64,000 nucleotides of DNA from Actinomycetota bacterium (GCA_013178005.1 JABLXL010000005.1:1544-65543); one strand, 5' to 3'. Shown: positions 8,353 to 64,000, counted from the stretch's first letter. Translations and numbers: made by a program. The notes: generated from the letters alone by a model not told the origin.

Positions 8353-8599
8353 CTCTCTGCCCTCCCTCTTCCGTTCACGGGACGTCCGTCTTGGCGTTCG
8401 CGGACAGGCGCGGGGATGGAACGAACGTGGGACGATGGCATCTCATGTGATCTCCAAAGCCGCGACCTTGCAGCCATTATACTACGGGCCATCGCCGGGA
8501 TTATCGGCCAGCTATCGCGGGTTCGCTCCGGATCGCGTAGACGAAGTGAACTTCACGCCTGTATAAAACCGCGGGGCATGAAGGCGCCGCGCGGCGTGG

Positions 8600-10077: not shown

Positions 10078-10203
10078 AGGGGGCGGCCCGGCCGCCTATC
10101 AATGGCCGAAAGCAGGCCGCCCCGCTCCAGGACACCGCGGCGGCATGACGGACGTCAGTGATTGCGCCGGGTGGCAGCTCAATGGCGGCAGTGGCCCTCA
10201 ACA

Positions 10204-10596: not shown

Positions 10597-10681
10597 GCAG
10601 CTTCCTCCTGCAGACACGGCCCAAGACACCACAGGCACATCGAGTCACCTTCCATGGATCCGCGTTCGCCCTGAATGATAC

Positions 10682-10704
10682 AACTTGATTAACTATATCA
10701 AGTT
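10682..10704. promoter_or_regulatory. 8-7-8 inverted repeat AACTTGAT-N7-ATCAAGTT in the divergent DUF192/meaB promoter region
   Basis: Perfect inverted repeat, seen directly, in an AT-rich intergenic stretch between divergent genes. Confidence 0.35.
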
Positions 10705-10848
10705 ATACTATATATTGCAACGATTATCGCCGCCGCGCTTCGGGATGCGGGAACGTTCCAAGCGCCATGCCGGCGACGGCGGGATGGGAGGTTGACCGCG
10801 GGCGGGGCAGCGCCGAGAATAGATGCGGGAATGCGAAAAGGAGGCGAC

Positions 10849-11799: not shown

Positions 11800-12066
11800 A
11801 CCGGCCTGTGGCGGAGCGGTCCCCGCATCTGGCCTCAAGCAAGCGGGGAAGAACAACCCTTGGAGCAGATCCGGCCTGTGATGGAGCGGTCCCCGCACCG
11901 GCCGGCTCCGCGCGACCGGGGCCATGAGCGGAGGTGCACCCGGCCCGATCGCAGTGCGGGGAGCCTTGCGGGGTTCAGGAACAGGTTCTCGCCGTGCAGG
12001 GTCATCCCTCCTGACCGGCGCGGGGATATGGACATGGCGAGCCGTGGATAGGGGCGGTGATGTGAT

Positions 12067-12954
12067 TTGCTCCGACTGGAAACGCGTTCCAGGATCGTTT
12101 TTATCCTTGCAGCCCTGGTGCTCGCGGCCGGGGCGGTATCTTCCCTGCTCATCCGGGCCGCGCGTTCCTCCTCCACCCGGGAGGTCATGGACGTAACGGC
12201 CGCGGGAGAGACGGCTCTCGGCATCTATTACAACGTCTCCTCGCTGGCGGATCGCTGGAGGGAGCCGGGCTCCAACGACATGGCCGCCCTGGCCATAGCA
12301 ATGCAAGAATGTATAGCCCTGCTGCGGGGGGAGATGGACCACGCGAGGGAACTCGAGGAGTCGATCCTCTCCGCCGGTGACGACGAGACGCGCAGGGGGG
12401 CCTCGATCGTACTCGAGGCCCTGGCCCTGCTCCGCGAGGCGCAGGAAGAGCTCGCCGGGGCGTTGGGCGATGCCGGGGAGGCGCTGGGCGGCCTTTACCC
12501 CCTCCGAGAGGCGGAAAACCGATACAAGGAAGCTCGCGACGCCTTCCTCGGAGCCGTCTCCGCACACAACCAGGCCGTTGAGGCCTCTTCCCGCGATTTT
12601 TCCTCCGCCAGACAGCGGGCCGCCTCATCCATACTCGCCCTGGAGAAGGCCCGCGCCGCCGTGGACTCCGCCGCCGTGGAGGGCCTGAACCTGGACCCCG
12701 CCCGGTCGGCCATCGCAGATCTCGATAAGGCGGTGGGGGAATTCATCCAGGCTTGCGCCCTGGGGGAGTCCGGCGACGTGGCGGCGCATAACGAGCTCGT
12801 GGCCCTTGCGGAGGCATCGCTCGCGTCCGCCCCCGCGACCCTCGAGGAGGGCCTGGACGTCTCCGGTTGGCTGGCCGGCCTCCTCGCACCTCGGCTGGAT
12901 GAGGTGAAGGGAAAGCTGTCGGAGGCGCGGGACCTCATCGGTGGTGGAGGTTGA
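12067..12954 (+). CDS. hypothetical Ala-rich protein with an N-terminal transmembrane anchor
   Basis: Long GC3-rich ORF with an N-terminal hydrophobic helix and no recognisable domain. Confidence 0.35.
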   Translation: MLRLETRSRIVFILAALVLAAGAVSSLLIRAARSSSTREVMDVTAAGETALGIYYNVSSLADRWREPGSNDMAALAIAMQECIALLRGEMDHARELEESILSAGDDETRRGASIVLEALALLREAQEELAGALGDAGEALGGLYPLREAENRYKEARDAFLGAVSAHNQAVEASSRDFSSARQRAASSILALEKARAAVDSAAVEGLNLDPARSAIADLDKAVGEFIQACALGESGDVAAHNELVALAEASLASAPATLEEGLDVSGWLAGLLAPRLDEVKGKLSEARDLIGGGG

Positions 12955-13016
12955 GGAAAAGAAACGCGCCTTTTGAGACGCGCAACCAAGCATGCGGCCG
13001 GGACCGTCCACGCGGC

Positions 13017-14108
13017 TCACGAGAACCTGAATAGCATCACGTCGCCGTCCCGCACCACGTAATCCCGGCCTTCCACCCTGACCGCGCCGGCCTCCCTCGC
13101 GGCGGAAAACGATCCATAAGCCAGGAAATCCTCCCACCCAATGACCTCGGCGCGGATGAAACCCCTGGCCATGTCGGTATGTATCTTGCCCGCCGCCTCC
13201 ACGGCGCTCCCCCCGGAGCGTAAGGGCCAGGCCCTGCACTCGCCGGACTCGGTGGTGAAGAAGGTGATGAGGCCGAGCAGGTCGCAGCAGCGCGAGGCGA
13301 ACTCCTCCAGCCCCGGCCGCTCGATGCCGTAGGCGGCCAGGAACTCCTCCATCTCGTCCGCCTCCAGCTCCTCGATCTCCGCCTCCAACCGGGCGCAAAA
13401 GGCGACCGTGCGCGCCCCCTCCGCCTCGGCCACCTCGCGCACCGCCTCCAGGAGCGGGCCTCCGTCCGGGAGCTGGTCCTCTCCCAGATTGGCCACGTAG
13501 ATCACGGGCTTGGCGGTGAGGAGGAACAGTCCGTCCAGAACCGCCTTCTCATCCCTTGAAAGCCCCATGGCCCGGACCGGCGTCTCCGAGTCCAGTCCCT
13601 CCTCGACTTTCCTGAGCACCTCCATCTCGCGGGCTTTTTCGCGGTCGCCGCTCGCCGCGGCCTTTCCTATCCTTTCCTTGCGCCTGGAAACCGCCTCCAG
13701 GTCGGCCAGGATGAGCTCCGCGTTCACCACCTCGATGTCCTTCACCGGGTCCACCTCGGCCCGCACGTGCGCCACGTCGGGAGAGGAAAAGCAGCGCACG
13801 GCATGGGCGATGGCGTCCACCTCGCGGATATGGGCCAGGAACTGGTTCCCCAGCCCCTCGCCGCGGTGGGCTCCCTCCACCAGCCCCGCGATGTCAACCA
13901 GCCTCAGGTCGGCCGGCACCACCTTACCGCATTTCGCCGCCTTCGCCACTTTTTCGAGACGGGCGTCCGGCACCGCCGCCACCCCGTAGTTGGGATCCAC
14001 GGTGGAGAAAGGGTAGCCGGCCACCTGGGCCCCTGCCCGGGTCAGGGCATTGAAGATGGTGGTTTTCCCGGAGTTGGGAAGCCCTATTATCCCCACCTGA
14101 AGGGCCAT
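13017..14108 (-). CDS. ychF: ribosome-binding ATPase YchF (Obg-like GTPase family)
   Basis: G1 motif GLPNSGKTT, NxxE, and the YchF C-terminal TGS domain. Start placed at MALQVGIIG. Confidence 0.85.
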   Translation of the reverse strand: MALQVGIIGLPNSGKTTIFNALTRAGAQVAGYPFSTVDPNYGVAAVPDARLEKVAKAAKCGKVVPADLRLVDIAGLVEGAHRGEGLGNQFLAHIREVDAIAHAVRCFSSPDVAHVRAEVDPVKDIEVVNAELILADLEAVSRRKERIGKAAASGDREKAREMEVLRKVEEGLDSETPVRAMGLSRDEKAVLDGLFLLTAKPVIYVANLGEDQLPDGGPLLEAVREVAEAEGARTVAFCARLEAEIEELEADEMEEFLAAYGIERPGLEEFASRCCDLLGLITFFTTESGECRAWPLRSGGSAVEAAGKIHTDMARGFIRAEVIGWEDFLAYGSFSAAREAGAVRVEGRDYVVRDGDVMLFRFS

Positions 14109-14269
14109 GCCGCCTCTCCTTTCCCGTCGCTCCGGCGCCTCCTGCCGGACCGGCTTTATCAAGTTTACACCCCGCGCTTTCGATATAGAACTGGACGCTG
14201 GAAAGGAGGGTTTCCCGGGGGAAACGGCACCGATGGTCCCGCCCGGGCAAGCCAAGAGGGGATAACCTG

Positions 14270-17257
14270 ATGAGGTCGGCCAAGCTTCTTCCGCTGTCCC
14301 ACTGGATGGCGTTCCTCGCCGTGGGCCTTTACCCGCTATATACCGGCGAGGGCATAAGTTACTGGCCCTGGGCGGTGACCACGTCAGCCCTTTTCGCCCT
14401 TGGCCTGGCCTACCATGTGTCGCGTTCCCTGCTCTCAGCGGGCGAAGTGGGTTGGATGGGCCTCTCCCTGCTGGGGATGGACTCCTTGCTGGTCTGCTTC
14501 CTGGTCTATCACTCGGGTGGCATCGCCAGCCCGCTCTTCCCCCTGCTCTTCCTGCTCAGCGCCACCGCGGCCCTCTATGACCGCTGGACCAACACCCTCC
14601 TTCTCGCGGGCGGCGTCAGCGCCGCCTATGTCATCTCCTGCCTCGCGAGGGATTTCGACTTCTCCGGCGACGGCGCCCGCCTTCTGATCAACGTCCTGGT
14701 GTTGCTGGGGTCCTCGGTGCTCCTTTCCTACCTGGCGGAACTTCACCGCAAGGAGCAGAGCAAGGCGGAGCGCATCGAGACCCTATACCGCCTGAGCTCC
14801 TCCCTCATGCAAGAGGTGGACCTGGAGAAGGCGCTGCATGACCTCCTCGCCACCACCGCCTCCTTCTTCCAGACCGAGATCAGCTCGGTGCGTCTCCTGG
14901 ACCGCGGGAGCGGGAAGCTGGTGGTCAGGGCTTCGGGGGCGCCCCCAGGCGAGCTGGATGAGCAGATAGAGATACCGGTGGGAGAGGGCTTTATAGGCTG
15001 GGTGGCCGCGGAGAAGGCGCCCATAATCGTCAACGACGTGAGCGCTGACCCACGTTTCGCCGATTTCCCCAAGGCCCGCGCCAAGGTTCGTTCCGCCCTG
15101 GCCGCCCCGATCCTGGTAGGCGGGGAGCTGGTCGGGGTGCTGAGCTTCGCCAGCGGCGAGCCTCGCGTATTTTCCTCGGATGACCTGCGCATGCTGGTCA
15201 CCATCTCCAACCTGGCGGCTTCGGTTATCGCCCGCTCCGAGCTCCACCAGATAATACTCTCCCGCAGCGAGGTCATCGTGGAGAGCATGGGCAGCGGTTT
15301 GCTGGTGACCGACACGGCGGGTAAGGTTGTTATGTCCAACCAGGCGGCGCGGGACATCCTCGGGATCGACGCACCCGACCATGATAGCACCCTTCACGAG
15401 CTGCTCGAGCCTATCCTCTCTGACGCTGAACCCCTCCGGCGACTGCTGGAAGAGGGGGCTTACGCGGGCGAAGAGTCCACCCGGCACGTAGAGGTGCACG
15501 TGGGAGGGCCACAGGAGCGCGTGCTCTCCGTGAGCGCCTCCCCCATACGGGCGGGATACGCGGCGGGCGGGGGCATGGTGTTCATCCTCGAGGACATCAC
15601 CGAGCGCGTCAAAGTGGATGAGATAAGGGATGACCTCATGCTTCTCATCGCCCGCAGGGTCGAGGAGCAGACCGCCCTCTACGAGGTCGGCAGGTCCCTG
15701 GTGGACGAGGTGGACACGCGCAACCTCCTCTCTTTCCTGCTGGAAAGGGCGGTGAGCCTGGTGGGAGGAGAGGCGGGAGCGCTGTCGTTACGAGAGGGCG
15801 ACGGGCTTTACCACGTCAAGGCCGTCCACAATCTCGGCCAGGAAGTCCTGGGCGCCTCCTTCATTCACGGCGAGTACCTGGCCGGGGAGGCGGCGCTCAA
15901 CGGGACGCCACTGCGGCGGGCATGCATCGATCCTGGACGGGAAACGCCCTGGGGAGCGACCCTGCATGGCAAGCACTCCTACCTGGCCGCCCCTTTAAGC
16001 TGGCAGGGGGTTCCGAAAGGGGTTATCGAGATAGTCTCGCGAAACGATGAGCGGGTCTTCGGCGAGGATGACCTGCGGCTGCTGGCGCTGTTCGTGAACC
16101 AGGCGGCCATCGCCCTGGAGAACGCCAACCTCTACCGCCTCATCAGCGAGGACCAGCGCCGCACCGAGGCCATGCTGCACTCCCTCAACGACGGGGTGAT
16201 CGCCATCAACAACGAGGCGGAGGTTATCCTGGTCAACGCGGCGGCGGAGAGCATCCTGGGCCTGCCGCCTTCGCGACGGATCGCCAACCGCCACGTCAAG
16301 GAGGTCATCCCGAACCCGGACATCGCCAACACTTTCCTGCGCAGCCTCAACACCGGCCTGGAACTCGAGGAAGAGGTGGCGGTGGGCCCCACCAAAAGGA
16401 AAATACTGGAGATACGCACGTCGATCATCGAGGCCTCGCCCGGGGAACGCATCGGCATCATCGCGGTAATCAGGGACATCACCAAGCTGCACGAGCTGGA
16501 GCAGGCGAAATCAGACTTCGTTTCCACCGTCTCCCACGAGCTGCGCACGCCCCTGACCTCCATCAAGGCATATACCGCCACCCTCCGGCGCGGCGACGTG
16601 GAATTCGATGAGGACACCAAGCGGGAATTCCTCCGCGTCATCGAGGACGAGACGGACCGCCTGGCCCGCCTGGTATCCGACATCCTGGACGTGTCGCGAA
16701 TCGAGTCGGGGCGGCTGGAGCTCAAGAAGCGGGAATTCGACCTCGCGAGGCTTGCCCGCATAGTAATCGAAAAGCTGGAATCCCATTCCTCTCGACACTC
16801 TTTCCACCTCCACTACCCACAACACATGGACCCGGTCTACGCCGACCCCGACAAGATCGAGCAGGTGATCATGAACCTGGTGGACAACGCGGTCAAGTAT
16901 TCCCCCTCCGGCGGGGAGGTCACCGTCAGCCTGGCGCAGGAGAGGAACAGGGTGGAGTTCAGGGTAAGCGACCAGGGCGTGGGCATCCCCCCCGAGCACC
17001 TGCCCCATATCTTCGACAAGTTCCACCGCGTGGACAACCGGGCGACGCGGGAGATATACGGGACCGGCCTGGGGCTTTATGTGAGCAAGAGCATCATAGA
17101 GGCGCACGGCGGGAGCATATGGGTGGAGAGCGAGTTGGGAGAGGGCAGCACCTTCCTCTTCACCCTGCCGGTGGTGCCGGCGGCGCTGCCGCGCGAGGAA
17201 CGGGAGCGGAAAGAATGCCGGCCGGCCGGGGAAAGCGCCGGGCAGCCGGAGGCTTGA
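14270..17257 (+). CDS. multidomain sensor histidine kinase (membrane sensor - GAF - PAS - GAF - PAS - HisKA - HATPase_c)
   Basis: N-terminal polytopic hydrophobic region, H-box HELRTPLTSI, and N/G1/G2 boxes (NAVKYS, DQGVGIP, GTGLGL). Confidence 0.85.
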   Translation: MRSAKLLPLSHWMAFLAVGLYPLYTGEGISYWPWAVTTSALFALGLAYHVSRSLLSAGEVGWMGLSLLGMDSLLVCFLVYHSGGIASPLFPLLFLLSATAALYDRWTNTLLLAGGVSAAYVISCLARDFDFSGDGARLLINVLVLLGSSVLLSYLAELHRKEQSKAERIETLYRLSSSLMQEVDLEKALHDLLATTASFFQTEISSVRLLDRGSGKLVVRASGAPPGELDEQIEIPVGEGFIGWVAAEKAPIIVNDVSADPRFADFPKARAKVRSALAAPILVGGELVGVLSFASGEPRVFSSDDLRMLVTISNLAASVIARSELHQIILSRSEVIVESMGSGLLVTDTAGKVVMSNQAARDILGIDAPDHDSTLHELLEPILSDAEPLRRLLEEGAYAGEESTRHVEVHVGGPQERVLSVSASPIRAGYAAGGGMVFILEDITERVKVDEIRDDLMLLIARRVEEQTALYEVGRSLVDEVDTRNLLSFLLERAVSLVGGEAGALSLREGDGLYHVKAVHNLGQEVLGASFIHGEYLAGEAALNGTPLRRACIDPGRETPWGATLHGKHSYLAAPLSWQGVPKGVIEIVSRNDERVFGEDDLRLLALFVNQAAIALENANLYRLISEDQRRTEAMLHSLNDGVIAINNEAEVILVNAAAESILGLPPSRRIANRHVKEVIPNPDIANTFLRSLNTGLELEEEVAVGPTKRKILEIRTSIIEASPGERIGIIAVIRDITKLHELEQAKSDFVSTVSHELRTPLTSIKAYTATLRRGDVEFDEDTKREFLRVIEDETDRLARLVSDILDVSRIESGRLELKKREFDLARLARIVIEKLESHSSRHSFHLHYPQHMDPVYADPDKIEQVIMNLVDNAVKYSPSGGEVTVSLAQERNRVEFRVSDQGVGIPPEHLPHIFDKFHRVDNRATREIYGTGLGLYVSKSIIEAHGGSIWVESELGEGSTFLFTLPVVPAALPREERERKECRPAGESAGQPEA

Positions 17258-17281
17258 TGCGAGGTCTTGAAAGGAGCGGCC

Positions 17282-18229
17282 ATGGAGAACGCAGGAGGTG
17301 CCCCCATCAAGGTCCTGGTTATCGACGACGAGCGGAATATCCTGGACATCATCAGGTTCAACCTCGAGGTGGAGGGGTACGAGGTCATCACCTCGCGCGA
17401 CGGGGAGGAAGCCCTGCGCATGGTGCGGGAGCTCAAGCCGGACCTCATCCTCTGCGACATCATGATGCCCGAGGTGGACGGCCTCGAGGTCTGCCGCCGC
17501 CTCAAGGCGGATGGCAGGACCAACCAGATCCCGGTGGTCATGCTCTCCGCCCGCACCCAGGCCCAGGATAAGGTGGCGAGCATAGAGGCGGGCGCCGACG
17601 ACTTCATCACCAAGCCCTTCGACTTCTCCGACCTGGTGGCACGCATCACCATCAACCTCATCAGGGCACGGCAGAAACGCGATGTGAGCCCCCTGACCGG
17701 GCTCCCCGGAAGCATATCCATAGAGGCGGAGACCAAGCGCCGCATAGCCAAGAACTTGCGCTTTTCCGCCCTCTACGTGGATATCGACAACTTCAAGCCC
17801 TTCAACGACGTCTACGGGTTCCCCACCGGAGACAAGGCCATCAGGATGCTGGCCGAGATCGTGGACGAGGCGGTGAAGAAACTGGGAAACGTGGACGATT
17901 TCATCGGCCACGGCGGCGGCGACGACTTCGTGGTTATCACCACGCCGGAGAAAGCCGCGGTCATTGCGGAGGAAATCATTTCCAATTTCGACGAGCGGGT
18001 GAGGACGCTCTACCGCGACGAGGACCTGCGCAGGGGGTACTCCATCCTGGTCGACCGCCTGGGACGCGACAACTATGTCCCCATAATGACCTTGAGCATA
18101 GGGGTGGCGAGCAACTACCGACGGCGCATCAGCACCCACTGGGAAGTGGGAGAGATCGCCAAGGAGACCCTGAATTACGCCAAGTCCATACCGGGAAGCA
18201 CCTACTTCATCGACCGACGCACCAAGTAA
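17282..18229 (+). CDS. response regulator receiver fused to a GGDEF (diguanylate-cyclase-type) domain with a variant GGDDF signature
   Basis: REC domain (VLVIDDE...DLILCDIMMP...K). GGDEF-domain context (NDVYGFPTGDKAIR...GHGGGDDFVVITTPE). ATG with an AAAGGAG RBS. Confidence 0.8.
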   Translation: MENAGGAPIKVLVIDDERNILDIIRFNLEVEGYEVITSRDGEEALRMVRELKPDLILCDIMMPEVDGLEVCRRLKADGRTNQIPVVMLSARTQAQDKVASIEAGADDFITKPFDFSDLVARITINLIRARQKRDVSPLTGLPGSISIEAETKRRIAKNLRFSALYVDIDNFKPFNDVYGFPTGDKAIRMLAEIVDEAVKKLGNVDDFIGHGGGDDFVVITTPEKAAVIAEEIISNFDERVRTLYRDEDLRRGYSILVDRLGRDNYVPIMTLSIGVASNYRRRISTHWEVGEIAKETLNYAKSIPGSTYFIDRRTK

Positions 18230-20753: not shown

Positions 20754-20828
20754 GGGGCCGTAGCTCAGCGGGAGAGCGCTGCCTTCGCACGGCAGAGGTC
20801 GTGGGTTCAAATCCCATCGGCTCCACCA
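20754..20828 (+). tRNA. tRNA-Ala (anticodon CGC), 3' CCA encoded
   Basis: Cloverleaf with a 7-bp acceptor stem containing the G3:U70 Ala identity pair. Anticodon loop TTCGCAC. T-loop GGTTCAAAT. Confidence 0.85.
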
Positions 20829-23682: not shown

Positions 23683-24867
23683 TTACAGGGAGAGCGCCAG
23701 CCGCCTCCCGAACTCCTCCGCCTCGGCCAGGTCCTCGGCGGTAGGCACCAGGTTGACGCGCAGGGGCTCCTCCTCCACCCTGAACTTGAGGCCCTTAAGC
23801 CGCTCGGCTATGAGCTTGGGGGCCTCGCCGCTCCAGCCGTAGGAGCCGAAGGAAGCGCCCACCTTCCCCCTGAGGTTCAGGGTGGCGAGGTGGGAGAGCA
23901 GGTACCACACCGGCTCCACCGCGTCCCCGTTGATGGTGGCGGATCCGACCGCGATGCCGTCCGCCGCCTCGATGCGGTCTATCATCAACCCCAGCTCGGT
24001 GGCCGTGATGTCCATGACCGCCACCCGCGCGCCCCCGGAGCGCGCCCCTTCGGCGATCTTTTCCGCCAGGGCGGCGGTGTTGCCGTAGGCGCTGGCGTAG
24101 AAGACCAGCAGGCTCTTCTCCCCCGTCGGCTCCGGCACCGAGCTCCAGGCGCGGTACTTCTCCACGCAGGCCCAGGGGTCCTTGCGCAGCACCGGGCCGT
24201 GGCTGGTGGCGACGACCTTTATGTCCAGGTCCTTTATCTTGTCGATGGCCTCCAGCACGTACTTCTTGAAGGGCCGGAAAATGACCATGTAGTAGTACTC
24301 GAAGGCGTGGGAGTAATCGTTCACCAGGTCGTCGAAGATGCGGTCGTCGCAGTAATGCGCCCCCAGGAAGTCACAGGTGAAGAGAACGCCGTCTTTCCGG
24401 TAATAGGTGAACATGGTATCCGGCCAGTGCAAAAACGGCGCGTGGACGAAGCGCAGCTCCGCCCCTCCCCCGAGGTCTAGGGTGTCCCCGTCCTGGACCA
24501 ACAGGGGGTCCACGTCGCGGTTGAGGATGTTCTTCACGAAGTTCCTGCATTGCCGGTCGCAAACCACCCTGGCGTTGGGCGCGTCCTCGAGAAAGCGCGC
24601 CAGTGAGCCGGAATGGTCCGGCTCGGTGTGGTTGACGACGACGTAGGAGATGTCTTTCAAGTCGACCAGGGAACTTATGTTCTCCAGGAAGTCTTCGTAG
24701 AACGGAGCCTTGACCGTATCGACCACGGCGATCTTGTCCCCGCCGGTGATAAGGTAGGCGTTGTAGGTGGTGCCGTGGTCAGCCTTCATAATGATGTCGA
24801 ATACCCGTAGCTGGGGGTCAAGGGCCCCCACCCAGTGAACCCCCTCGCTGATCCTCACCGGCAGCAT
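23683..24867 (-). CDS. A-type flavodiiron protein (FprA / rubredoxin:oxygen oxidoreductase family)
   Basis: Metallo-beta-lactamase-like diiron site (HTEPDHSG) plus a C-terminal flavodoxin domain (LLVFYASAYGNT). Confidence 0.85.
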   Translation of the reverse strand: MLPVRISEGVHWVGALDPQLRVFDIIMKADHGTTYNAYLITGGDKIAVVDTVKAPFYEDFLENISSLVDLKDISYVVVNHTEPDHSGSLARFLEDAPNARVVCDRQCRNFVKNILNRDVDPLLVQDGDTLDLGGGAELRFVHAPFLHWPDTMFTYYRKDGVLFTCDFLGAHYCDDRIFDDLVNDYSHAFEYYYMVIFRPFKKYVLEAIDKIKDLDIKVVATSHGPVLRKDPWACVEKYRAWSSVPEPTGEKSLLVFYASAYGNTAALAEKIAEGARSGGARVAVMDITATELGLMIDRIEAADGIAVGSATINGDAVEPVWYLLSHLATLNLRGKVGASFGSYGWSGEAPKLIAERLKGLKFRVEEEPLRVNLVPTAEDLAEAEEFGRRLALSL

Positions 24868-26662: not shown

Positions 26663-27919
26663 ATGGGACTGGTCGAGGACGTAAGGGACCGCTACATAGA
26701 GAAGCTGTCGCCCGGCACCTTCCGATCCCGCGTGTTCTGGAAAACTGTGGAAACCCTCGCGCGCTCGCCCCTCAACCGCCCGCAGTGGAAAGCCGACCGC
26801 GTCTCGCTCTCCTACTTCATACGCGCCACGCGCGACGCCTACCTGCGGCGCGCGCCGGTGGTGTGGAGCAACCTACTGGTCCCCAGCGAGCTCATCCTGG
26901 GCTCGGGATGCATCCCCTTCTACCCCGAGATGGCCGCGGCGGTGGTGGCCTCGGCGGGGCTCGCGCCGCGCTTCATCGACCGCGCCGGCGAGGAAGGATT
27001 TTCCTCCGACGCCTGTTCCTACCACCGCTGCGTGCTGGGATGCGCCCTGGATGGTTTCCTGCCCGAGCCGGACCTCCTGCTCACCGTCAATTACCCCTGC
27101 GATTCCGCCCCCCTTTCCTTCTCCTTCGCCTCCGATCTCTACGGCGCGCCTCACCGCGTCCTCGACGTTCCCCTCCACGAGGACCGCGAGTCCCTGGGCG
27201 TCCTGGCGGAGCAGATGGAGGAGGCGGCGGCTTTCATGCTCTCCCTCTCCGGCCTAACGGCGGAGGAGGGCGGTGATAAGCTGCGGGAGGCCCTCGGCTT
27301 CTCCAACCTCGCGTTGCGCCACATGCGGCGGGTGGAGGAGCTCCGCAAGCGCGACGACTGCACCCTAGACGGCAAGGACGCCATGGGAGGGATCAGCGTG
27401 CTTGCGGGGAGCATGGGCTCGCGCGAGGGGGCGGAGTACTACCGCCTGCTGGCCGACGAGCTCGAGGAGAGGGGTTGCGCGGGCGGCGGAGCGATCCGCC
27501 TCATGTGGATGCACCTCAAGCCTTGGTACGCCCAGGGCATCTTCGACGCCCTGGAGCGCCATGGAGCCCGCCTGGTCTGCGAGGAATACACCCACGCCAC
27601 GTGGGAGGAGCTGAACGCAGCGGAGCCCTACGCGTCCCTTGCCCAAAAAGTGGCGGGGCATTTCCTGGTGGGGCCGGCGGAGAGGCGGGCGCGCCATCTC
27701 GCCCGCCTGGCACAGGACTACCGCGTGGACGGGGCCATCCATTACAACCACTGGGGCTGCCGGCAGAGCTGCGGGGGAGCCATGCTGGTCAAGGAGGCCC
27801 TGCAGGGGATCGGGGTTCCGGTGCTGACCATCGACGGCGACTGCGTGGACGAGCGCGAGTACCAGGAGGGACAGCTCTCCACCCGCCTGGAGGCCTTCCT
27901 GGAATCCCTCAAGGCCTAG
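26663..27919 (+). CDS. 2-hydroxyacyl-CoA dehydratase-family subunit (HGD-D family), larger subunit
   Basis: HGD-D family similarity throughout (YHRCVLGC..., IHYNHWGCRQ). No activator (HgdC-like ATPase) is present in the window. Confidence 0.65.
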   Translation: MGLVEDVRDRYIEKLSPGTFRSRVFWKTVETLARSPLNRPQWKADRVSLSYFIRATRDAYLRRAPVVWSNLLVPSELILGSGCIPFYPEMAAAVVASAGLAPRFIDRAGEEGFSSDACSYHRCVLGCALDGFLPEPDLLLTVNYPCDSAPLSFSFASDLYGAPHRVLDVPLHEDRESLGVLAEQMEEAAAFMLSLSGLTAEEGGDKLREALGFSNLALRHMRRVEELRKRDDCTLDGKDAMGGISVLAGSMGSREGAEYYRLLADELEERGCAGGGAIRLMWMHLKPWYAQGIFDALERHGARLVCEEYTHATWEELNAAEPYASLAQKVAGHFLVGPAERRARHLARLAQDYRVDGAIHYNHWGCRQSCGGAMLVKEALQGIGVPVLTIDGDCVDEREYQEGQLSTRLEAFLESLKA

Positions 27920-28061
27920 GGGTCAAGGCTGGCCATCGGCCTAAGGTAGTCCTAGGCCTAGGGGTCAAGGCTGGCCATCGGCCTAAGGTATACATCCTTT
28001 GCTTTTTAGGCCTAGGGGTCAATTAGGCCTAGGGGTCAAGGCTGGCCATCGGCCTAAGGTA
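27913..28061. repeat. three tandem REP-like palindromic repeats (AGGCCTAGGGGTCAAGGCTGGCCATCGGCCTAAGGTA)
   Basis: Three near-identical roughly 37-bp units with irregular spacers (5 and about 34 bp). They overlap the hgdA-like stop and the transposase stop. Confidence 0.8.
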
Positions 28062-29070
28062 TACATCCTTTGCTTTTAAGAATCTGCAGAACGCCCGCCT
28101 CGTCGGCAAGCAGCCTTGCCCGCATCCCCTTATCCTCATCTAAGCACTTGTTGAATCTCAAGTAGCGATGTGAGGCAGCGTTTTCCTTAATCCCGCCTAT
28201 CACCTTTGCGATATCGTCGAAAGAGGTGAGAGTATATTCCCTAGCCATATGGATAAGTAAATTACATGCATAACGATATCTCTTGTCTGCCCGATAGCTC
28301 CCATGCTCCAGGCTGTCTATCCCGAGATGCTCGCAAATAGCTTCTAGAACCTCGTCGAGGGAGGGGATCCTCGTCAATTCTTTATGCCCAATCAAACCCT
28401 TAGACCATTTTTCTTGCCTTATGCTTGCTTTGATTCGCCTGAGAAATGCATCGCTGCCCAGAAGCGCCTGTGCAACGACTTTGTGATCAGAAGGATAATT
28501 ATTTTCCTCTCCTAAGGCATTCTCGACAAAAGCCTGATATTCCCTGCCAGCTGGCTCGCTGCCACAGCCAAAATACTCCTCCAGCCATGATGAATCGAAC
28601 CAGCCCCCAGCGGTTCCATTGATGCAATCGCGATAGTTTGACCAGTTATAATCCTCAGGCCGTTCGACCACGCCCGCCTCCACAGGGTTTAGGTGGATAT
28701 AGCGGTTGACGATGAGGAAATACTCCTCTTCGTCTATGCGGATCGCCTTGTACCTGCCGGCAAACACATGTCCCACCCAACCGCCCCTGACAAGGAAGTT
28801 CGCATACGACGAGCCGAGAAAATGCATAAATTCGTGCAGGTTCTCAATGGTGATACGTAGCGAGAGGTGATAGTGATTATCCATGATGCAGAACGCGAAG
28901 ATGTCGATCATGTATTTTTGCGCTCCTCTGCACAGGAGATCGAGGAAATATTTCTTGTGGCTCTCCCCTGTCAGGATATCAAGCTTGAGGTTTCCGCGGG
29001 AGAACACATGAAACACTGCTCCCTTTTCCTGAATTCTTAATGTTCTAGTCATGACCATTATTATAACCAT
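28054..29070 (-). CDS. IS200/RAYT-like HUH tyrosine (Y1) transposase with a C-terminal extension
   Basis: HuH motif HYHLSL and catalytic-Tyr region (AGRYKA). Low GC relative to its surroundings. Confidence 0.7.
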   Translation of the reverse strand: MVIIMVMTRTLRIQEKGAVFHVFSRGNLKLDILTGESHKKYFLDLLCRGAQKYMIDIFAFCIMDNHYHLSLRITIENLHEFMHFLGSSYANFLVRGGWVGHVFAGRYKAIRIDEEEYFLIVNRYIHLNPVEAGVVERPEDYNWSNYRDCINGTAGGWFDSSWLEEYFGCGSEPAGREYQAFVENALGEENNYPSDHKVVAQALLGSDAFLRRIKASIRQEKWSKGLIGHKELTRIPSLDEVLEAICEHLGIDSLEHGSYRADKRYRYACNLLIHMAREYTLTSFDDIAKVIGGIKENAASHRYLRFNKCLDEDKGMRARLLADEAGVLQILKSKGCIP

Positions 29071-29328
29071 GTTATGTATGTTGTAAATATGTATTGTATT
29101 TGATTATCTTTGATGTGAGGCTTGTAAGTCTCTCTTCCAGCACTTTCCGCTTCTATGAGGCTCTATACTTCGCTTCGTTAAATGAACCTCATGAATGAGC
29201 TTTTCTTGGAATCCGGCGGGTCCCTCCGGCTAGAACGATTCCTAATTCTAATTTAGTCTGTCACTCACCTGCTCAACGCCCTGAAAAGCATTCTATAGCG
29301 GCTTCTAATGTCCGATAGCCCTGGCCCC

Positions 29329-29362
29329 TTGGCCTTAGGCCGATGGCCAGCCTTGACCCCCA
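29329..29362. repeat. REP-like repeat in inverted orientation (right boundary of the transposase unit)
   Basis: CCTTAGGCCGATGGCCAGCCTTGACCCC is the reverse complement of the 27913-28061 units. Confidence 0.8.
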
Positions 29363-29469
29363 GGCCAGTCCCCCAGGCTACCAGGCCTTAATGCATGGGG
29401 CGGTGGGAGACGGTAAAATGAGATAGCTGTTCTGGTCACGCTTCGGTTCTCGCCCGGGAGGTGTTCGAG

Positions 29470-30045
29470 ATGAAGAAGGCGTCTACGCTTCTGCTCTCGT
29501 CTTTGCTGGCCGTGTCGCTGGCTTTCGCCCTGGCCGGATGCGGGCAGAGCAGCGAGGACAAGGCCTTGAGGTTTATCGGCAGGGGCGACGCCAGCGCGTA
29601 CCGCATGGCCAGCGAGGGACAGAGGATGAGCGACGCCCTCCAGGAGTTCTTCGATGTCCTGCAGGGCCCCAACCCCCAGGCCATCGTGGAACCCGGCGGA
29701 CCCCTGGAAGAATACGAGGACGCCCGGGAGGAGATGTCCTCCTACGCCGCCAGGGCGGAAGCGGAGTTCCAAGGCGTGCTCGACCTGGGCGGCGTCGAGG
29801 AGGAGAAACAGTACGCCACCATGATGATCGAGGTGGCAAGCAAGACAAAGGAGTTGGCCGGCTTCGTGGAGGAGTGGTTCAACAAGGCCCTGGACGTGAT
29901 CAAGACCCTGGACGAGAAGAAGATCCGGTCCTACCTCACCGGCGACGAGTTCGAGGGCGGGCTCGCCGAGATAGACGAGATGAAATCAGAGATCGACAAG
30001 CTGGCCGGCAAAGCCAAGGACTACCGCCTGGAAAACGATTTTTAG
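29470..30045 (+). CDS. hypothetical lipoprotein
   Basis: Signal peptide plus lipobox LAGC with a GGGAGG RBS. Acidic and coiled body. Confidence 0.45.
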   Translation: MKKASTLLLSSLLAVSLAFALAGCGQSSEDKALRFIGRGDASAYRMASEGQRMSDALQEFFDVLQGPNPQAIVEPGGPLEEYEDAREEMSSYAARAEAEFQGVLDLGGVEEEKQYATMMIEVASKTKELAGFVEEWFNKALDVIKTLDEKKIRSYLTGDEFEGGLAEIDEMKSEIDKLAGKAKDYRLENDF

Positions 30046-37989: not shown

Positions 37990-38470
37990 TCGGGCTTGGC
38001 CTACTCCCCGGCTACATCCGTTATCGGCCCGGGCCGGGCTGGCGGGCAAGAGCTGAAAACACGGGAAGGGCGGCCCTTGTTTCGTGACTTAAACGGAATT
38101 CCAGCCCACTGGCTCTGGGCTTTATCAACCCCTCGGCCACGTCCTCGTTCACCCGGGCCGGGCCGTGGGGCAAAAGTTGAAACATGGGAAGGGCGGCCCT
38201 TGTTTCGTGACTGGAACGGATTTACCAACCACCCGGCTTCGGGCTTGATCTGCCCCTCGGCTATATTCGTCATCAGCCCGAGCCGGGCCGGCGGGCGGAG
38301 ATGGGGAGCCTCCAGTCGCGGCCGAAGGCGCGGGGGGTGATCTTTATCCCCACCGGGGCCTGGCGGCGCTTGTACTCGTTGGCGTCCACGCGCCGCACCA
38401 CCTCCTCCACCAGCGCGCGGTCGTTCCCCGAGGCGGCCATCTCCTCCACCGCGAAGCAGTCCTCGATACC
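37990..38470. repeat. left copy of a roughly 480-bp duplicated block: tandem ~125-bp structured sub-repeats plus a pseudo-copy of the nadE 3' end
   Basis: 38282-38470 matches 40360-40550 (the nadE 3' end); near-identical for about 95 bp, then diverging. Preceded by units ending ...GGGCCGGGC(T)GGCGGGC-AAGAGCTGAAAACA-GGGAAGGGCGGCCCTTGTTTC. Confidence 0.8.
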
Positions 38471-38591
38471 GGATATCGTTTATGTATCTACGTTTACTTA
38501 AGGGCTTGCAATACCATATGATGTGGACGCAGGCTAGAGCTGCGCTAGCAGATGGCGGTGAAGATAATTCTTCTCGTGGCCATCCTCGCTC

Positions 38592-38942
38592 TCACTCAAA
38601 ATGAGCACTGTCTTCCAGCAGCCTGCGGCAAGACGACTCTAGCGGCCCAAGTTTGTTCTGCACCACATCCCAGATCACCGGAAGGCTGACCCCGAAATAT
38701 TCATGGGCGAGGATGTTCCTTAAACCGGCGATCTTGCGCCACTCGATCTCGCCAGCCGCATTTTTCATCTTTTCGGGCAACCGGCCCGCAGCTTCCCCGA
38801 TGATCTCAAGGTTGCGAACCACTGCATCCTGGGTCTTGCGATCTCTGGAAAAGGCTTCGTAATCCATCGAAGCGGTATATTCCCGCACCTGATATATCGC
38901 ATCAAGGATGTCGTCCAGGAACAGCCGAGGATCTCTAGGCAT
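38592..38942 (-). CDS. hepT: HepT-family (DUF86) HEPN RNase toxin
   Basis: Rx4HxY motif (RNILAHEY). 116 aa. Overlaps the upstream MNT gene by 8 nt. The locus is low-GC. Confidence 0.8.
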   Translation of the reverse strand: MPRDPRLFLDDILDAIYQVREYTASMDYEAFSRDRKTQDAVVRNLEIIGEAAGRLPEKMKNAAGEIEWRKIAGLRNILAHEYFGVSLPVIWDVVQNKLGPLESSCRRLLEDSAHFE

Positions 38943-39231
38943 AGATCGCCTCTTTTTCGATGATTGGCTTAAGCCGAGGCTTTATGCTGTCTGCCATTAC
39001 CAGGTCCACTTGTCGCTGAAGCATCTCTTCCAGTTCGAATTTGAGCTCCATATAGTTATCGAATGTCGGTTCTGCCAGCTCGACGATGATATCTATGTCG
39101 CTATCTTGTTTTTCATCCCCCCTGGCATACGAACCAAAAATGCCGATGCGCTCTACGCTAAACCGTTCGGCCAGTTCCGGAAGCGCCGCGGCGATTTTCT
39201 GTAAAATCTCCTGGGCTCTCTTGCAACACAT
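38935..39231 (-). CDS. mntA: MNT-family nucleotidyltransferase antitoxin
   Basis: GSxxRG...DxD Pol-beta-type nucleotidyltransferase motif (GSYARGDEKQDSDIDI). Confidence 0.8.
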   Translation of the reverse strand: MCCKRAQEILQKIAAALPELAERFSVERIGIFGSYARGDEKQDSDIDIIVELAEPTFDNYMELKFELEEMLQRQVDLVMADSIKPRLKPIIEKEAIYA

Positions 39232-39592
39232 ATCATGGTCCTCTTTGGTTTTCCCTTCTCCCCTGATCCTTAGCCTTTGCTCATCGATACGATCGCCTCT
39301 ACGAACTTTTTAAGGCCTTGAGCCGAATATAACTCTATGCTATTTCCCGTTTTCTTCCAGGGCAATCGCCTCTACGAACTTTCATGAGGCCTTGAGCCTG
39401 TTAATATCGCTTTCCTCCACCTTGGCGATTGCCACCTCTCTGATCGGCCCAGATGGGTCACCGCGTCAACCTCTCCGGGTTCCAGCGCATGTCAAGAACC
39501 GTGTCCGGTCCAACCCAATCCGCGGACATCGCGCATAGCGCTTTCGTGCAATCGTTTTGTGGAACGATTACACGGGCGTTTCCCTGGCGCCA

Positions 39593-39814
39593 TCATCTCC
39601 TCCGGCCCTTTGCGTGGCGTGAGCCTTTATTGCCCTGCTCTCCGGCTGCGCCGGATTTAACCCACGCGTCCACTTCTTTCTTATCGAACTTCCATAGCCG
39701 GCCGATTTTATGGCCTGGCATCCGCCGCTCACTGATCCATTTATAGACCGTATCCCGCTTGACTCCGAGATGTTCAGCGATCTCGTCAACCGATAGCCAT
39801 CGGCCCTCCATCAT
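39593..39814 (-). CDS. excisionase / AlpA-family HTH DNA-binding protein (HTH_17)
   Basis: LSVDEIAEHLGVKRDTVYKWISERRMPGHKIGRLWKFDKKEVDAWV is a classic Xis/AlpA fold signature. Confidence 0.7.
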   Translation of the reverse strand: MMEGRWLSVDEIAEHLGVKRDTVYKWISERRMPGHKIGRLWKFDKKEVDAWVKSGAAGEQGNKGSRHAKGRRR

Positions 39815-40042
39815 TCGACCTCGCTCACTATCGCCTTCACCGTATGGCCTCCAACATCTTCTTCATCTTGGTTGATCGGTGCCCCGCGCTGCAATCCTTG
39901 CCGTCATCGTACCGAAATAACATAGCTTGCAAATCTACAATATATTGGTTTGAAGCCTAATGTCAAATTGTTTGTCCCTGTATTTTACCATTCTTTACGA
40001 ATATAACCGAAGTAATCATGGAATGACGGCCATTGCCTCATG

Positions 40043-59243: not shown

Positions 59244-59801
59244 TCAACCTCCGGACATCTTCCTGTAAGCCCTCGAGAGCTCGAGGTTCATGTCCGCCAC
59301 CCTTCTCGCGAACTCCCCGGCTTGATCATCCAGGTCCGCGAGGCGCAGGGCCTTCTCCGGCGTGTCCACGACGCTTCCGGATGCGACCAGTCTTCCCGCG
59401 TCCACCTCCACCCCTTCAACCACAGCCACTTGCCTGATAACCGTCCCATCCCCGATGGAGGCGTTGAAAATCACTGAGCCGAACCCCACGAAACAGCCGT
59501 CCCCTATCCTGCAAGGGCCATGTATTATGCACCCATGGGCAAGGGATGCTCTTCGGCCGATAACCACGGATGAACCCTTCAGCGCGTGGATTATCACGCC
59601 GTCCTGTACGTTGCTCCCCTCCCCTATCTCGATCGAGCTTTCCGGCTCGTCCGCCCTCAACACCGCGCATGGCCCTATGAAGACCTCGTCGCCGACGATC
59701 ACCTTGCCGACGAGCAGGGCTGTCGGGTCGATGTAGGCGCTTCCCGATATCATGGGCGATTCCCCCTGGGGATTGGGCCTTCCCTTCACGTTTCCTTTCA
59801 T
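59244..59801 (-). CDS. gamma-class carbonic-anhydrase-like / left-handed beta-helix hexapeptide-repeat protein
   Basis: Hexapeptide repeats with the His ligand context of gamma-CA/YrdA/PaaY (VIIHALKG...LAHGCIIHGP). Its ATG overlaps the PEPC stop (ATGA). Confidence 0.7.
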   Translation of the reverse strand: MKGNVKGRPNPQGESPMISGSAYIDPTALLVGKVIVGDEVFIGPCAVLRADEPESSIEIGEGSNVQDGVIIHALKGSSVVIGRRASLAHGCIIHGPCRIGDGCFVGFGSVIFNASIGDGTVIRQVAVVEGVEVDAGRLVASGSVVDTPEKALRLADLDDQAGEFARRVADMNLELSRAYRKMSGG

Positions 59802-61327: not shown

Positions 61328-61677
61328 CCGCCGTCCCCCTATGTCCGTCCGGCCGCCGTCCCCCGCTCTCGCGGGATGCTGAGAACCTTTCTCCGAGCGG
61401 GTTCAGTGCGAGGCCTGGGTAAAGTAAGTGTCATATTAACACAGGAAAGGGGCGTCCGACAAAGCGCTTCCTCAACTAGTTTCGTCACCCTCCATGATCC
61501 ACTCGCTCCCGGGCAATGGTGCGGCCGCGGCGACGCTGCACTTTACCCCCGGCCGCCCGCACGGACGGTATCACCCTTGACCGACGCTGAGCAGGCGATC
61601 GTTGCTTTCCCCGCGAAGCGGATTTGCGGTATCGTGATAACCGAAGCGCATCTTCTTGTTATAAAGGGGGGATTCTC

Positions 61678-62100
61678 ATGACCATGATCTCGTGTCCCGA
61701 CTGCGGCAAGGACGTCTCGGACCTGGCGCCGGCCTGCCCCAACTGCGGCTATCCCGTCGCCGAGGAGGCGGAAAAGGCGGCGGCGGAAAAGGAGAAAAAG
61801 AAGGGCCTCGAAGGTTTCGTCGATTTCATCCGAAAGCAGGGCGTGGTGGGCCTGGCCATCGGCTTCATCGTGGGCGTGGCCACGGGCACCGTGGTCAACT
61901 CCCTGGTCACCGACCTGATCAACCCGATCATCGGCGCGATCGTCGGGCAGGGCAGCCTGGACACGCTGACCTTCCACATCGGAGACGCCGTGTTCAACTA
62001 CGGCCACTTTATCGGGGTGGTGATCAACTTCGTGATCATCCTGGCCGTAGTCTATTTCGGCTTCAAGGCGCTGCGCCTGGAAAAACTCGACAAGAAATAA
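61678..62100 (+). CDS. mscL: large-conductance mechanosensitive channel MscL with an N-terminal Cys4 zinc-ribbon extension
   Basis: CPDCG...CPNCG zinc ribbon, then the MscL TM1 (VVGLAIGFIVGVATGTVVNSLVTDLINPIIG) and TM2. ATG with an AAAGGGGGG RBS. Confidence 0.7.
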   Translation: MTMISCPDCGKDVSDLAPACPNCGYPVAEEAEKAAAEKEKKKGLEGFVDFIRKQGVVGLAIGFIVGVATGTVVNSLVTDLINPIIGAIVGQGSLDTLTFHIGDAVFNYGHFIGVVINFVIILAVVYFGFKALRLEKLDKK

Positions 62101-62406
62101 TTCGCCAAGCGGCTTTCGCCGCCCGCATGCAGCTGCCGTACGAAAGGGCGCGGGATCCCGCGCCCTTTTCCTTGCCCTGCCATTTAGTCCCGCACTTGAT
62201 GCATCCCTGGGCGGCATCGCCGAGGGGGCGCCGGTCGGGCGCTCCCGCTTTCTCACCGGACCTCGCGGCCGGCATGAATGCCGTCCTCATGCTCCGCCAG
62301 CGACTCTATGGTGCCGTCCAGCCCGCAGGAGGCGGTGGTGTGCTCCGCCGGAACCATACCGCTCGGTCCGGTGGCGCCGTGCCTCGCGACAGGCGGGAAA
62401 ACAGCC

Positions 62407-63756
62407 TCAATGCTCCGCCAGCGACTCTATGGTGCCGTCCAGCCCGCAGGAGGCGGTGGTCTCCTTGAAGGTGCCCTCCCACATGCCGATGGCCACCGCC
62501 AGCTCCTGGTGGTCCTGGGCGTACTCGTGGATGGGGATTCCGCACATGGTGGCCTCGATGGCCTGGCGGAATGCCCGCGCGCCCGCCGTCGGTCCCATGG
62601 GGTGGGCGTGGATGCCGCCTCCGGAGCCGATCATAATCTCCTTCCCCAGGTCCGCCACGCACACCGGCACCATGTCCGGGGTGATGCCTCCCGAGGGCAT
62701 GGGCATGGTCGGCTTCAGGTTATGCAGGGGATAGTGCATGACGTCGGCGGTGTAGACGAAGCGGTCCTTAAGGTAGGGCGCCTTGCCGTAGGGCGCGGGG
62801 AAGACGATGGCGTCGGCCCCCGCCAGGCGGGGAAGCTTGCCCAGCACCAGGTGGGAGGCGATACCGGAGATGGGCGACTCGTAGAGGGCGCCTGCGCAGT
62901 CCATGTGGGCGAGGATGGGCACGTTGATGTCCGGATCCTCGGCCAGGGTCTGCAGCGCCGGGAGCCCCACCGCCAGGTAATTGACCATGATGGCGTTGGC
63001 GCCGGCGTCCACCACCCGCTTGGCGATCTCGAACATCTTGGGGATGTTGTCCGATATGTTCACCGTGTACAGGGTGTGCTCCCCCGTCTCCTCGTAGACC
63101 CGCTTCTCCATGGCCATGTAAGCCCTGACCCGGTCCTCGCAGCGGTTGAAGGCCATGTCCGCGATGAGCTCGTCGTCCTTGATGACGTCGCACCCGCCCA
63201 GGGCGGCCTCGTAGAAGAGCTTCTCCCCGATCTCGCAGGAGTATCCGGTGCAGGGCTTGATCATGTTATTGAGCAAGGGGCGGTGCTCCTTCATCCCCAG
63301 CGCCTCGTAAATGCCGTCGATGCCGAACTTGGGGCCCCCGAAACCGTCGGTGTAGCTCTTGGGGAACCACAGGTCGATGAGCTTAATCTTTCCACCCATG
63401 GAAATATTTCCCACCACGGCGGTAAGCAGCATGGGGATCTGGTGCTCTATGTTGCGCACGGGGAAGGCCACCTGCACTACGTAGGTCCGCTCCTCCACCT
63501 CCTTGGGCACCTCGAACTCGTAGAAAGGCACCTCGTGGATGGCGATGACCTTGGCCACGTGCTTCGCCCTAACCTCCGGCGTCTCGCCCGGAACCGCGGT
63601 CCAGGTGCCGGTGGACTGCTCCACCGCCAGGAAGGGCGCCAGGTAGTACATGATCATGTCCCTGGGCAGAGCCGCGTAGTAGGTGGCGATGATGAAATCA
63701 TCGTCCTCTATGCCCTCCGGCAAAGCCTTGGGCTGCGCCTCGTAGTACAGCATCAT
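62407..63756 (-). CDS. RuBisCO large-subunit-like protein (probable form IV RLP)
   Basis: RuBisCO fold with K175-like IKP, the carbamylation motif GGCDVIKDDE and SGGGIH. The KPK second Lys is replaced (IKPC) and the R295 equivalent is Met (HMDCAG), consistent with an RLP. Confidence 0.65.
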   Translation of the reverse strand: MMLYYEAQPKALPEGIEDDDFIIATYYAALPRDMIMYYLAPFLAVEQSTGTWTAVPGETPEVRAKHVAKVIAIHEVPFYEFEVPKEVEERTYVVQVAFPVRNIEHQIPMLLTAVVGNISMGGKIKLIDLWFPKSYTDGFGGPKFGIDGIYEALGMKEHRPLLNNMIKPCTGYSCEIGEKLFYEAALGGCDVIKDDELIADMAFNRCEDRVRAYMAMEKRVYEETGEHTLYTVNISDNIPKMFEIAKRVVDAGANAIMVNYLAVGLPALQTLAEDPDINVPILAHMDCAGALYESPISGIASHLVLGKLPRLAGADAIVFPAPYGKAPYLKDRFVYTADVMHYPLHNLKPTMPMPSGGITPDMVPVCVADLGKEIMIGSGGGIHAHPMGPTAGARAFRQAIEATMCGIPIHEYAQDHQELAVAIGMWEGTFKETTASCGLDGTIESLAEH

Positions 63757-63878
63757 CCTCTCCTCCTCATGGTCTATTCTTCATCTTCAAGTCAAATATT
63801 CCCGTCTTGACGATCACTCCCGGTTGTCTCCTTCACCCCCTCGATTTACGCGCCATCTTCCGTCCAACCTTTTCTTCC

Positions 63879-64000
63879 TCAAGCCTCGCAGGCTTCCTCT
63901 CCCTCGTTGAGCATGCGGCAGACCCCGGTGAGGTTGCCGTACAGCCTGCGGAAGACGCCGTAGAGCTCCTCGTATTCGTCGCAGCATCCCGGGTCGGGCT
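63879..64000 (-). CDS. 3' end of an unidentified CDS running off the window edge
   Basis: GC3-rich open frame ending at a TGA. The roughly 40 C-terminal residues are visible (…LYGNLTGVCRMLNEGEEACEA). Confidence 0.3.
   Translation of the reverse strand, partial: PDPGCCDEYEELYGVFRRLYGNLTGVCRMLNEGEEACEA

Follow-up and report, generated by a model that had tools for sequence, protein, structure and literature searches.

How does a homologue of RuBisCO serve its host when part of the RuBisCO active site has been replaced? The question is raised by a gene near one end of a 64,000-nucleotide stretch of DNA from an Actinomycetota bacterium (GCA_013178005.1, JABLXL010000005.1:1544-65543), called here the window, in which a preliminary description had recognised a RuBisCO-like protein (RLP) with substituted active-site residues. 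The open reading frame (ORF) encodes 449 amino acids from an ATG at 63756 and is preceded by a ribosome-binding site (Table 1). Its product matches the Pfam families RuBisCO_large_N (PF02788, 43.8 bits, E 3.6e-11) and RuBisCO_large (PF00016, 159 bits, E 2e-46), both above the gathering score, and thus has the N-terminal alpha/beta domain and the C-terminal TIM-barrel domain of the RuBisCO large-subunit superfamily. An AlphaFold2 model, with a pLDDT of 75 that is low at residues ~112–121 and ~287–299 and used for fold assignment only, aligned with RLP and RuBisCO structures at TM scores of 0.74–0.87. An identical protein is present in the metagenome-assembled genome (MAG) GCA_020725935.1 at NCBI, and homologues with 86–94% identity come from MAGs of Candidatus Solincola and other Actinomycetota of the Geothermincolia type. 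Because of these homologues the ORF is real, far beyond chance: this is a genuine gene for a RuBisCO large-subunit homologue, as first described.

We mapped 21 canonical active-site positions by alignment to form I RuBisCO (Cupriavidus necator pHG1), form III RuBisCO (T. kodakarensis, P. horikoshii and 8dht, with sequences from PDB alignments), genuine MtnW (G. kaustophilus 2oek, and Priestia megaterium from its mtn operon) and other RLPs (4nas, C. tepidum 1ykw, 3nwr, Rhizobium OiaX and the short RLP 3qfw). Fifteen sites are kept (E60, T65, W66, N123, K175, K201, D203, E204, H294, K334, S379, G380, G381, G403 and G404, in RuBisCO numbering) and six are substituted (T173M, K177C, R295M, H298A, H327V and L335A); the Ala296 position holds an invariant Asp (Asp286 of the protein). 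The residues that characterise the superfamily active site (K193, D195, E196, K167 and H284 of the protein) all align and are invariant in 83 family members. Four motif readings made earlier from the sequence are confirmed, with codon positions checked: KDDE (I-K193-D-D195-E196, residues 192–196) and SGGGIH (S378-G-G-G-I-H383) are retained, KPK is replaced by IKPC (I-K167-P-C169, residues 166–169), and the R295 equivalent is Met (H284-M285 at H294-R295). The whole residue pattern is identical in the 83 members, whose overall identity is only 62–94% with 123 invariant positions, which argues for strong selection and not for decay. The proximal C1 phosphate of ribulose-1,5-bisphosphate (RuBP) is bound by T65, W66, G381, G403 and G404. 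Its distal C5 phosphate is bound by R295, H298 and H327; both sites are as reported for Andersson's complexes with carboxyarabinitol bisphosphate (CABP) and by Tabita (2007). In this protein the three distal ligands have become Met, Ala and Val. Judged from the alignment, the RLP has lost precisely the second (P2) phosphate site together with K177 and has kept the rest, and this loss indicates a monophosphate as the probable substrate.

The family is confined to uncultured anaerobes of hot springs, aquifers and sediments (Ca. Solincola/Geothermincolia, Dehalococcoidia, Anaerolineae and Caldisericota), and the RLP scan matched 330 GTDB species-level genomes. What accompanies it could be read from the neighbouring genes. 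The informative neighbour lies upstream and encodes a XylB-like FGGY carbohydrate kinase; the window stops 244 nt from the RLP start and so contains only the 3' end of this gene. The earlier statement that the neighbours are not a methionine-salvage context still stands. The kinase fragment has 72% identity over 39 amino acids to a relative's kinase (tblastn, alignment ending at 63882), and the extended contig of the window (1–360) matches FGGY C-termini in NCBIfam. Linkage was surveyed in 82 species-level loci; in 67 of them the upstream DNA extends for 1.7 kb or more. In 63 of the 67, fewer than 400 nt separate the RLP gene from the end of an upstream FGGY kinase gene on the same strand (median gap 31 nt), and in three more the kinase gene lies within 1.6 kb. 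The linkage spans Actinomycetota (Solincola, Geothermincola, Anoxymicrobiaceae), Dehalococcoidia, Anaerolineae, Caldisericota and a few others. The FGGY kinase is a near-universal operon partner of the RLP family. It is closest to the xylulokinase model, below the cut-off (338 versus 380 bits; PDB match 2itm), followed by gluconokinase as second-best FGGY model (254–277 bits), and scores 123 and 52 bits with the fuculokinase and rhamnulokinase models. The kinases in the RLP family are 44–54% identical to each other and about 30% identical to those beside sister RLP clusters.

A third adjoining gene on the same strand is one of three mutually exclusive alternatives; ORF clustering of these GC-rich flanks was contaminated by antisense shadow ORFs, and same-strand clusters alone were used. 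In about 32 loci it encodes a 406-residue saccharopine-dehydrogenase-like (Sacchrp_dh-like) protein; in Solincola types this gene precedes the kinase gene, and in Dehalococcoidia and Caldisericota it follows the RLP gene. In about 20 loci the product is a class-III aminotransferase, which is HemL-like in Dehalococcoidia and Anoxymicrobiaceae but resembles acetylornithine aminotransferase in Anaerolineae, and in five loci it is a Pyr_redox_2 flavoprotein. In Actinomycetota a TetR regulator gene stands in front of the cassette. No functional hint came from plasmid-borne homologues of the Sacchrp_dh-like protein, which are surrounded by uncharacterised genes. Among the other flanking genes of four representative loci no further conserved partner was found. 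An Amidohydro_2 gene, downstream of the RLP gene in some relatives, was considered as a core partner and rejected, being present in only 2–3 species-level loci.

The nearest other clusters (P0121, P0123, P0124, P0127–P0130 and P0137; 44–56% identity) share the E/N/K/Cys...K334 pattern with the family, and their R295 position varies. Sister clusters with this pattern also lie beside FGGY kinases and dehydrogenases, class II aldolase, aminotransferase or glp genes: the RLP is accompanied by an iron-containing and a zinc-containing alcohol dehydrogenase, an FGGY kinase and a sugar ABC transporter in P0124, and by an FGGY kinase, a class II aldolase and a class-III aminotransferase in P0123. In P0125 it is found within a cluster of glpA/B/C-like, glycerol kinase and MIP genes; in this Desulfosporosinus sp. 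MAG (6245–17329) it stands between GlpA-like and GlpB/GlpC-like anaerobic glycerol-3-phosphate dehydrogenase genes, with pyruvate kinase, enolase, glycerol kinase and MIP channel genes downstream. In P0127, from the cultured Anaerofustis stercorihominis whose protein is WP_007049508.1, it adjoins a SorC-type sugar-phosphate regulator. The Vibrio nigripulchritudo plasmid pVNTG1 (5839–10458) carries a 381-residue RLP of the 3qfw type in an operon with a split transketolase-like thiamine pyrophosphate enzyme, an FGGY kinase, a short-chain dehydrogenase/reductase and a sugar ABC transporter. Here, in a cultured organism, an RLP is associated with an FGGY kinase for a second time and independently.

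Relatives were searched among 1.84 billion cluster representatives, and a neighbour-joining tree was built from 124 full-length sequences with 200 bootstraps. The query family forms its own clade (99%) and is placed outside the YkrW clade (88%; Lys at the N123 position, including MtnW of G. kaustophilus and P. megaterium), the short RLPs of the 3qfw/Vibrio type (99%), the C. tepidum Photo group (82%) and the Oia/3nwr group (98%). By this separate clade and by NCBIfam scores below the cut-off, the subfamily, left open in the earlier description, differs from the characterised ones. The signature of the IV-Photo group (N123E, K177N, R295F, K334R) is absent from the protein. On these comparisons the RLP belongs to a distinct, uncharacterised subfamily outside the RuBisCO, MtnW, Photo and Oia groups and the 3qfw-type clade. 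A full-text literature search returned no paper that links an RLP to an FGGY kinase or describes this clade.

We propose, with a probability of roughly 0.6, that the RLP is the second or third enzyme of a two- to three-gene cassette and would enolise and then isomerise a monophosphorylated keto-(amino)sugar. The upstream kinase would phosphorylate a free sugar, polyol or amino-polyol. The third enzyme, a Sacchrp_dh-like NAD(P) oxidoreductase in the lineage of the window and a class-III aminotransferase in others, would interconvert amine (or alcohol) and carbonyl on the same carbon skeleton, either generating the carbonyl for the RLP or aminating its product. The RLP would bind the monophosphorylated keto compound via the conserved proximal (P1) phosphate site, and its carbamylated Lys193/Asp195/Glu196-Mg2+ centre, with Lys167 and His284, would abstract a proton to form an enediolate. 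Reprotonation, through a carbonyl shift or an epimerisation, is the most likely and most economical outcome and would yield a sugar phosphate of central metabolism. We infer the sequence of these steps, the single phosphate on the substrate and the isomerisation as outcome; the non-carboxylating label given to the protein earlier is likewise inferred. The linkage to a kinase, a P1 site left intact and the deletion of the P2 site point together to a keto substrate that carries one phosphate and is the product of the neighbouring kinase. By analogy, the pairing of kinase and RLP follows the logic of the apiose RLPs with their DUF1537 kinases, and plasmid RLP matches beside four-carbon acid-sugar kinases show the same pairing. 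That the Sacchrp_dh-like protein alternates with two kinds of class-III aminotransferase suggests amine/carbonyl interconversion on a common skeleton. Lysine 6-dehydrogenase and lysine epsilon-aminotransferase, non-homologous enzymes that both convert an omega-amine into an aldehyde, offer a precedent. A kinase for a free sugar would favour catabolism or salvage over biosynthesis, and the invariant Asp286 at the former P2 site might pair with an ammonium group or recognise a cationic amino group. Enediolate formation at the carbamate-Mg2+ centre is common to all characterised superfamily members (PMC10176493), and all residues for it are invariant in the family.

Could the protein instead be a true RuBisCO, or the methionine-salvage enzyme as which its relatives are annotated? 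It shares with the form III enzymes of T. kodakarensis (3kdo) and P. horikoshii (2cwx) the superfamily, the fold, the spacing of loop 6 and the pattern N123/K175/K201/D203/E204/H294/K334/S379/G380/G381/G403/G404. The score with the form III model (260 bits) is however below the cut-off of 497, and the six substitutions are invariant. With K177, R295, H298, H327 and T173 missing, the second phosphate of RuBP should be unable to bind. A RuBisCO homologue that lacks some of the residues needed for RuBP carboxylation is by definition of form IV, and on the mapping of the 21 positions the protein is a form IV RLP and not a RuBisCO, in agreement with the class first assigned to it; the full catalytic set is absent, and the alignment rules the form III reading out, leaving it practically no probability. 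MtnW/YkrW, the 2,3-diketo-5-methylthiopentyl-1-phosphate enolase, is the closest known enzyme in sequence and fold (2oek, 2zvi, 4nas; ~36–40% identity, 270 bits, TM 0.77–0.86). The best NCBIfam, PDB-sequence and Foldseek matches are all of this type (~40% identity to 4nas and 2oek; top structural match 2zvi), the Mg2+/carbamate triad and the K175 and H294 equivalents are present in both, R295, H298 and H327 are lost in both, and GGGIHxHP and PSxGI motifs are common to them. JGI/IMG gives the enolase name to most members of the family and of sister clusters (P0001–P0120, P0123, P0139 and others), and KEGG-style annotation would make the protein a genuine MtnW of methionine salvage. The scores nevertheless remain under both curated cut-offs (NF007095, 360.1 against 409; TIGR03332, 311.2 against 513.6), and the query lies outside the YkrW clade. 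According to Imker et al. (2007), Lys98 is reportedly the general base of the G. kaustophilus enolase. At that position (G. kaustophilus numbering verified) the family has Asn117, an Asn in 83 of 83 members, and the YkrW signature E60G, N123K, K334S and G380A is replaced by Glu, Asn, Lys and Gly. The FGGY kinase stands in place of the MtnW partners mtnK/A/B/X/D: tblastn found no homologue of MtnK, MtnA, MtnB, MtnX or MtnD in the window or in the 83 loci with 10-kb flanks, whereas the Priestia locus, the positive control, showed the full mtn operon. The surroundings are thus not those of methionine salvage, as had been noted. A genuine MtnW is therefore very improbable, and since the Lys98 equivalent and the mtn context are both lacking, the family is probably subject to systematic over-annotation as this enzyme.

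Several observations weigh against our proposal. The hosts of the family are all uncultured, the backbone of the neighbour-joining tree is not resolved, and the reference clades in the tree are the YkrW, Photo, Oia/3nwr and 3qfw types, not the IV-AMC, IV-GOS and IV-Aful clades (Tabita 2007). About 10 of the 38 fully flanked loci have neither a Sacchrp_dh-like nor an aminotransferase gene. The Sacchrp_dh-like protein is distant from characterised enzymes (54 bits to carboxynorspermidine synthase), and we assign it a putative amine-dehydrogenase function by analogy. Moreover E60, N123 and K334, which handle CO2 in RuBisCO, would be superfluous for a simple proton transfer, and this trio, kept whole here unlike in the enolase and 3qfw-type RLPs, hints at carboxyl chemistry instead. 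This family and the wider set of E60/N123/K175/Cys177...K334 RLPs would then be carboxylases, decarboxylases or transcarboxylases acting, like OiaX/OiaC or RuBisCO, on a monophosphorylated keto- or amino-sugar made by the FGGY kinase. We consider this unlikely, while granting that the trio and H294 are invariant and that, among the references, K334 is kept only in forms I and III and in RLPs of the Oia/3nwr type, being lost in MtnW (Ser), the 3qfw type (Arg) and the Photo group (Arg); this correlation rests on very few characterised clades. Gluconokinase as the second-best kinase model would also allow a sugar acid as substrate. The OiaX/OiaC-type RLPs of D-apiose catabolism (3nwr) resemble the query in these three residues and in adjoining a kinase that makes the phosphorylated keto substrate, but they are only ~30% identical, their kinase is the four-carbon acid-sugar kinase DUF1537 and not FGGY, and the OiaX model gives 184.7 bits against a cut-off of 700. 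They also keep R295 and usually H327, both lost in the query along with K177, now Cys. No conserved carboxylate-related partner gene accompanies the family, and the phosphoenolpyruvate (PEP) carboxylase and gamma-carbonic-anhydrase-like genes of the window are not syntenic in relatives. Similarly doubtful is an isomerase of methylthioribulose-1-phosphate or 5-deoxyribulose-1-phosphate in the anaerobic salvage of methylthioadenosine or 5'-deoxyadenosine, the by-products of S-adenosylmethionine, in which the FGGY kinase would phosphorylate C1 of a free 5-substituted ketopentose. Hydrophobic residues (Met/Ala/Val) now occupy the former P2 site and, like the Pro/Ala/Val of the 3qfw type, would suit an uncharged tail such as that of 5-deoxy- or 5-methylthio-ribulose-1-phosphate; N123 and E60 are kept as in the short RLPs of this type (IV-DeepYkr-like), whose Vibrio plasmid member also adjoins an FGGY kinase; the hosts are anaerobic; and a FucA/ribulose-1-phosphate-aldolase-like class II aldolase occurs in three Solincola-type loci and one sister locus. 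We take the 3qfw type to be, probably, the 5-methylthioribulose-1-phosphate 1,3-isomerase group with the characterised R. rubrum-type enzyme. The query nevertheless falls outside its clade (99% monophyly), and that clade, which lacks the T65/W66 segment and the K177 residue and has His at E204 and Arg at K334, differs from the query with T51, W52, C169, E196 and K325. The kinase is xylulokinase-like rather than a fuculo- or rhamnulokinase, and this salvage would leave no role for the recurrent amine-handling partner.

Table 1. Coordinates of the features in the window, counted from its first nucleotide, with the basis of each assignment.
Feature	Position	Strand	Basis and remarks
RLP gene, form IV, FGGY-linked subfamily	62407..63756	-	ORF; PF00016 + PF02788; AlphaFold2 fold
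Shine-Dalgarno sequence GAGGAGGAGAGG, strong, abutting the RLP ATG	63757..63768	-	direct sequence reading
Lys193 codon (= carbamylated K201)	63178..63180	-	alignment; invariant in 83 members
Asp195 codon, Mg2+ site with K193/E196	63172-63174	-	alignment; invariant in 83 members
Glu196 codon, Mg2+ site with K193/D195	63169-63171	-	alignment; invariant in 83 members
Asn117 codon (= RuBisCO N123; MtnW catalytic Lys98 position)	63406..63408	-	alignment; invariant Asn in 83 members
K167-P-C169 (= K175-P-K177)	63250..63258	-	general acid/base Lys kept; second Lys replaced by invariant Cys
H284-M285-D286-C-A288 (= H294-R295-A296-x-H298)	62893..62907	-	H294 kept; distal-phosphate ligands lost; invariant Asp gained
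Loop 6, V318...Y-G-K325-A326 (= H327...G-K334-L335)	62779..62805	-	H327 lost, K334 kept; family-invariant
XylB-like FGGY carbohydrate kinase, 3' end (last 40 codons including stop), cut by window end	63879..64000	-	tblastn
26-nt perfect GC-rich palindrome AAAGGGCGCGGGATCCCGCGCCCTTT between convergent RLP and MscL genes	62143..62168	.	sequence; likely shared bidirectional terminator

Downstream of the RLP gene and convergent with it is a zinc-ribbon-MscL fusion gene (61624–62100, +); Zn_ribbon_3 and MscL are syntenic in the loci of four relatives, downstream of RLP/Amidohydro_2. An 89-nt direct repeat (62256–62344 and 62377–62465; 83% identity, spacing 121 nt) lies at the 3' end of the RLP gene. 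Its second copy comprises the last 59 nt of the gene and 30 nt downstream, so the 3' end of the gene has been duplicated in the intergenic gap. The repeat is private to the genome of the window, with one copy in relatives, and may be the footprint of a rearrangement, because some relatives carry the Amidohydro_2 gene there. An archaeal-type PEP carboxylase (PF14010; 59798–61327, -), followed by a hexapeptide-repeat, gamma-carbonic-anhydrase-like protein (59244–59750, -), is encoded 1–3 kb away in this bacterial genome; both were rejected as functional partners for want of synteny with the RLP gene. Elsewhere in the window, genes for a penicillin-amidase family protein (6178–8352, -), a 995-residue GAF-PAS histidine kinase (14270–17257, +), a flavodiiron-type (ODP/flavodoxin) protein (23683–24867, -) and a 2-hydroxyglutaryl-CoA dehydratase D-component-like protein (26663–27919, +) were sampled, and they are consistent with an anaerobic lifestyle. 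The sole RNA gene is tRNA-Ala(CGC) (20754–20828). Two stretches of lower G+C content (28001–30000, 0.53, and 38001–40000, 0.55, versus ~0.65 elsewhere) may be foreign or non-coding.

Only a handful of RLP functions are known, namely enolase, 1,3-isomerase, apiose decarboxylase/transcarboxylase and hamamelose oxygenase (PMC10176493). Each of them revealed a new pathway and informed ideas on the evolution of RuBisCO chemistry. By the comparisons made here, the present RLP departs from every characterised group in the features that define it, and it defines a kinase-linked cassette restricted to uncultured anaerobes. As this cassette of kinase, RLP and amine/carbonyl enzyme is compact and conserved, the function is directly testable in vitro. 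Of the RLP groups compared, this family keeps the most RuBisCO-like catalytic set, losing only the second phosphate site, and it is therefore relevant to the origin of RuBP specificity and of carboxylation. If the CO2-handling residues are indeed used as such, widespread subsurface anaerobes would be carrying out C-C bond chemistry of the RuBisCO type on a substrate that is not RuBP.

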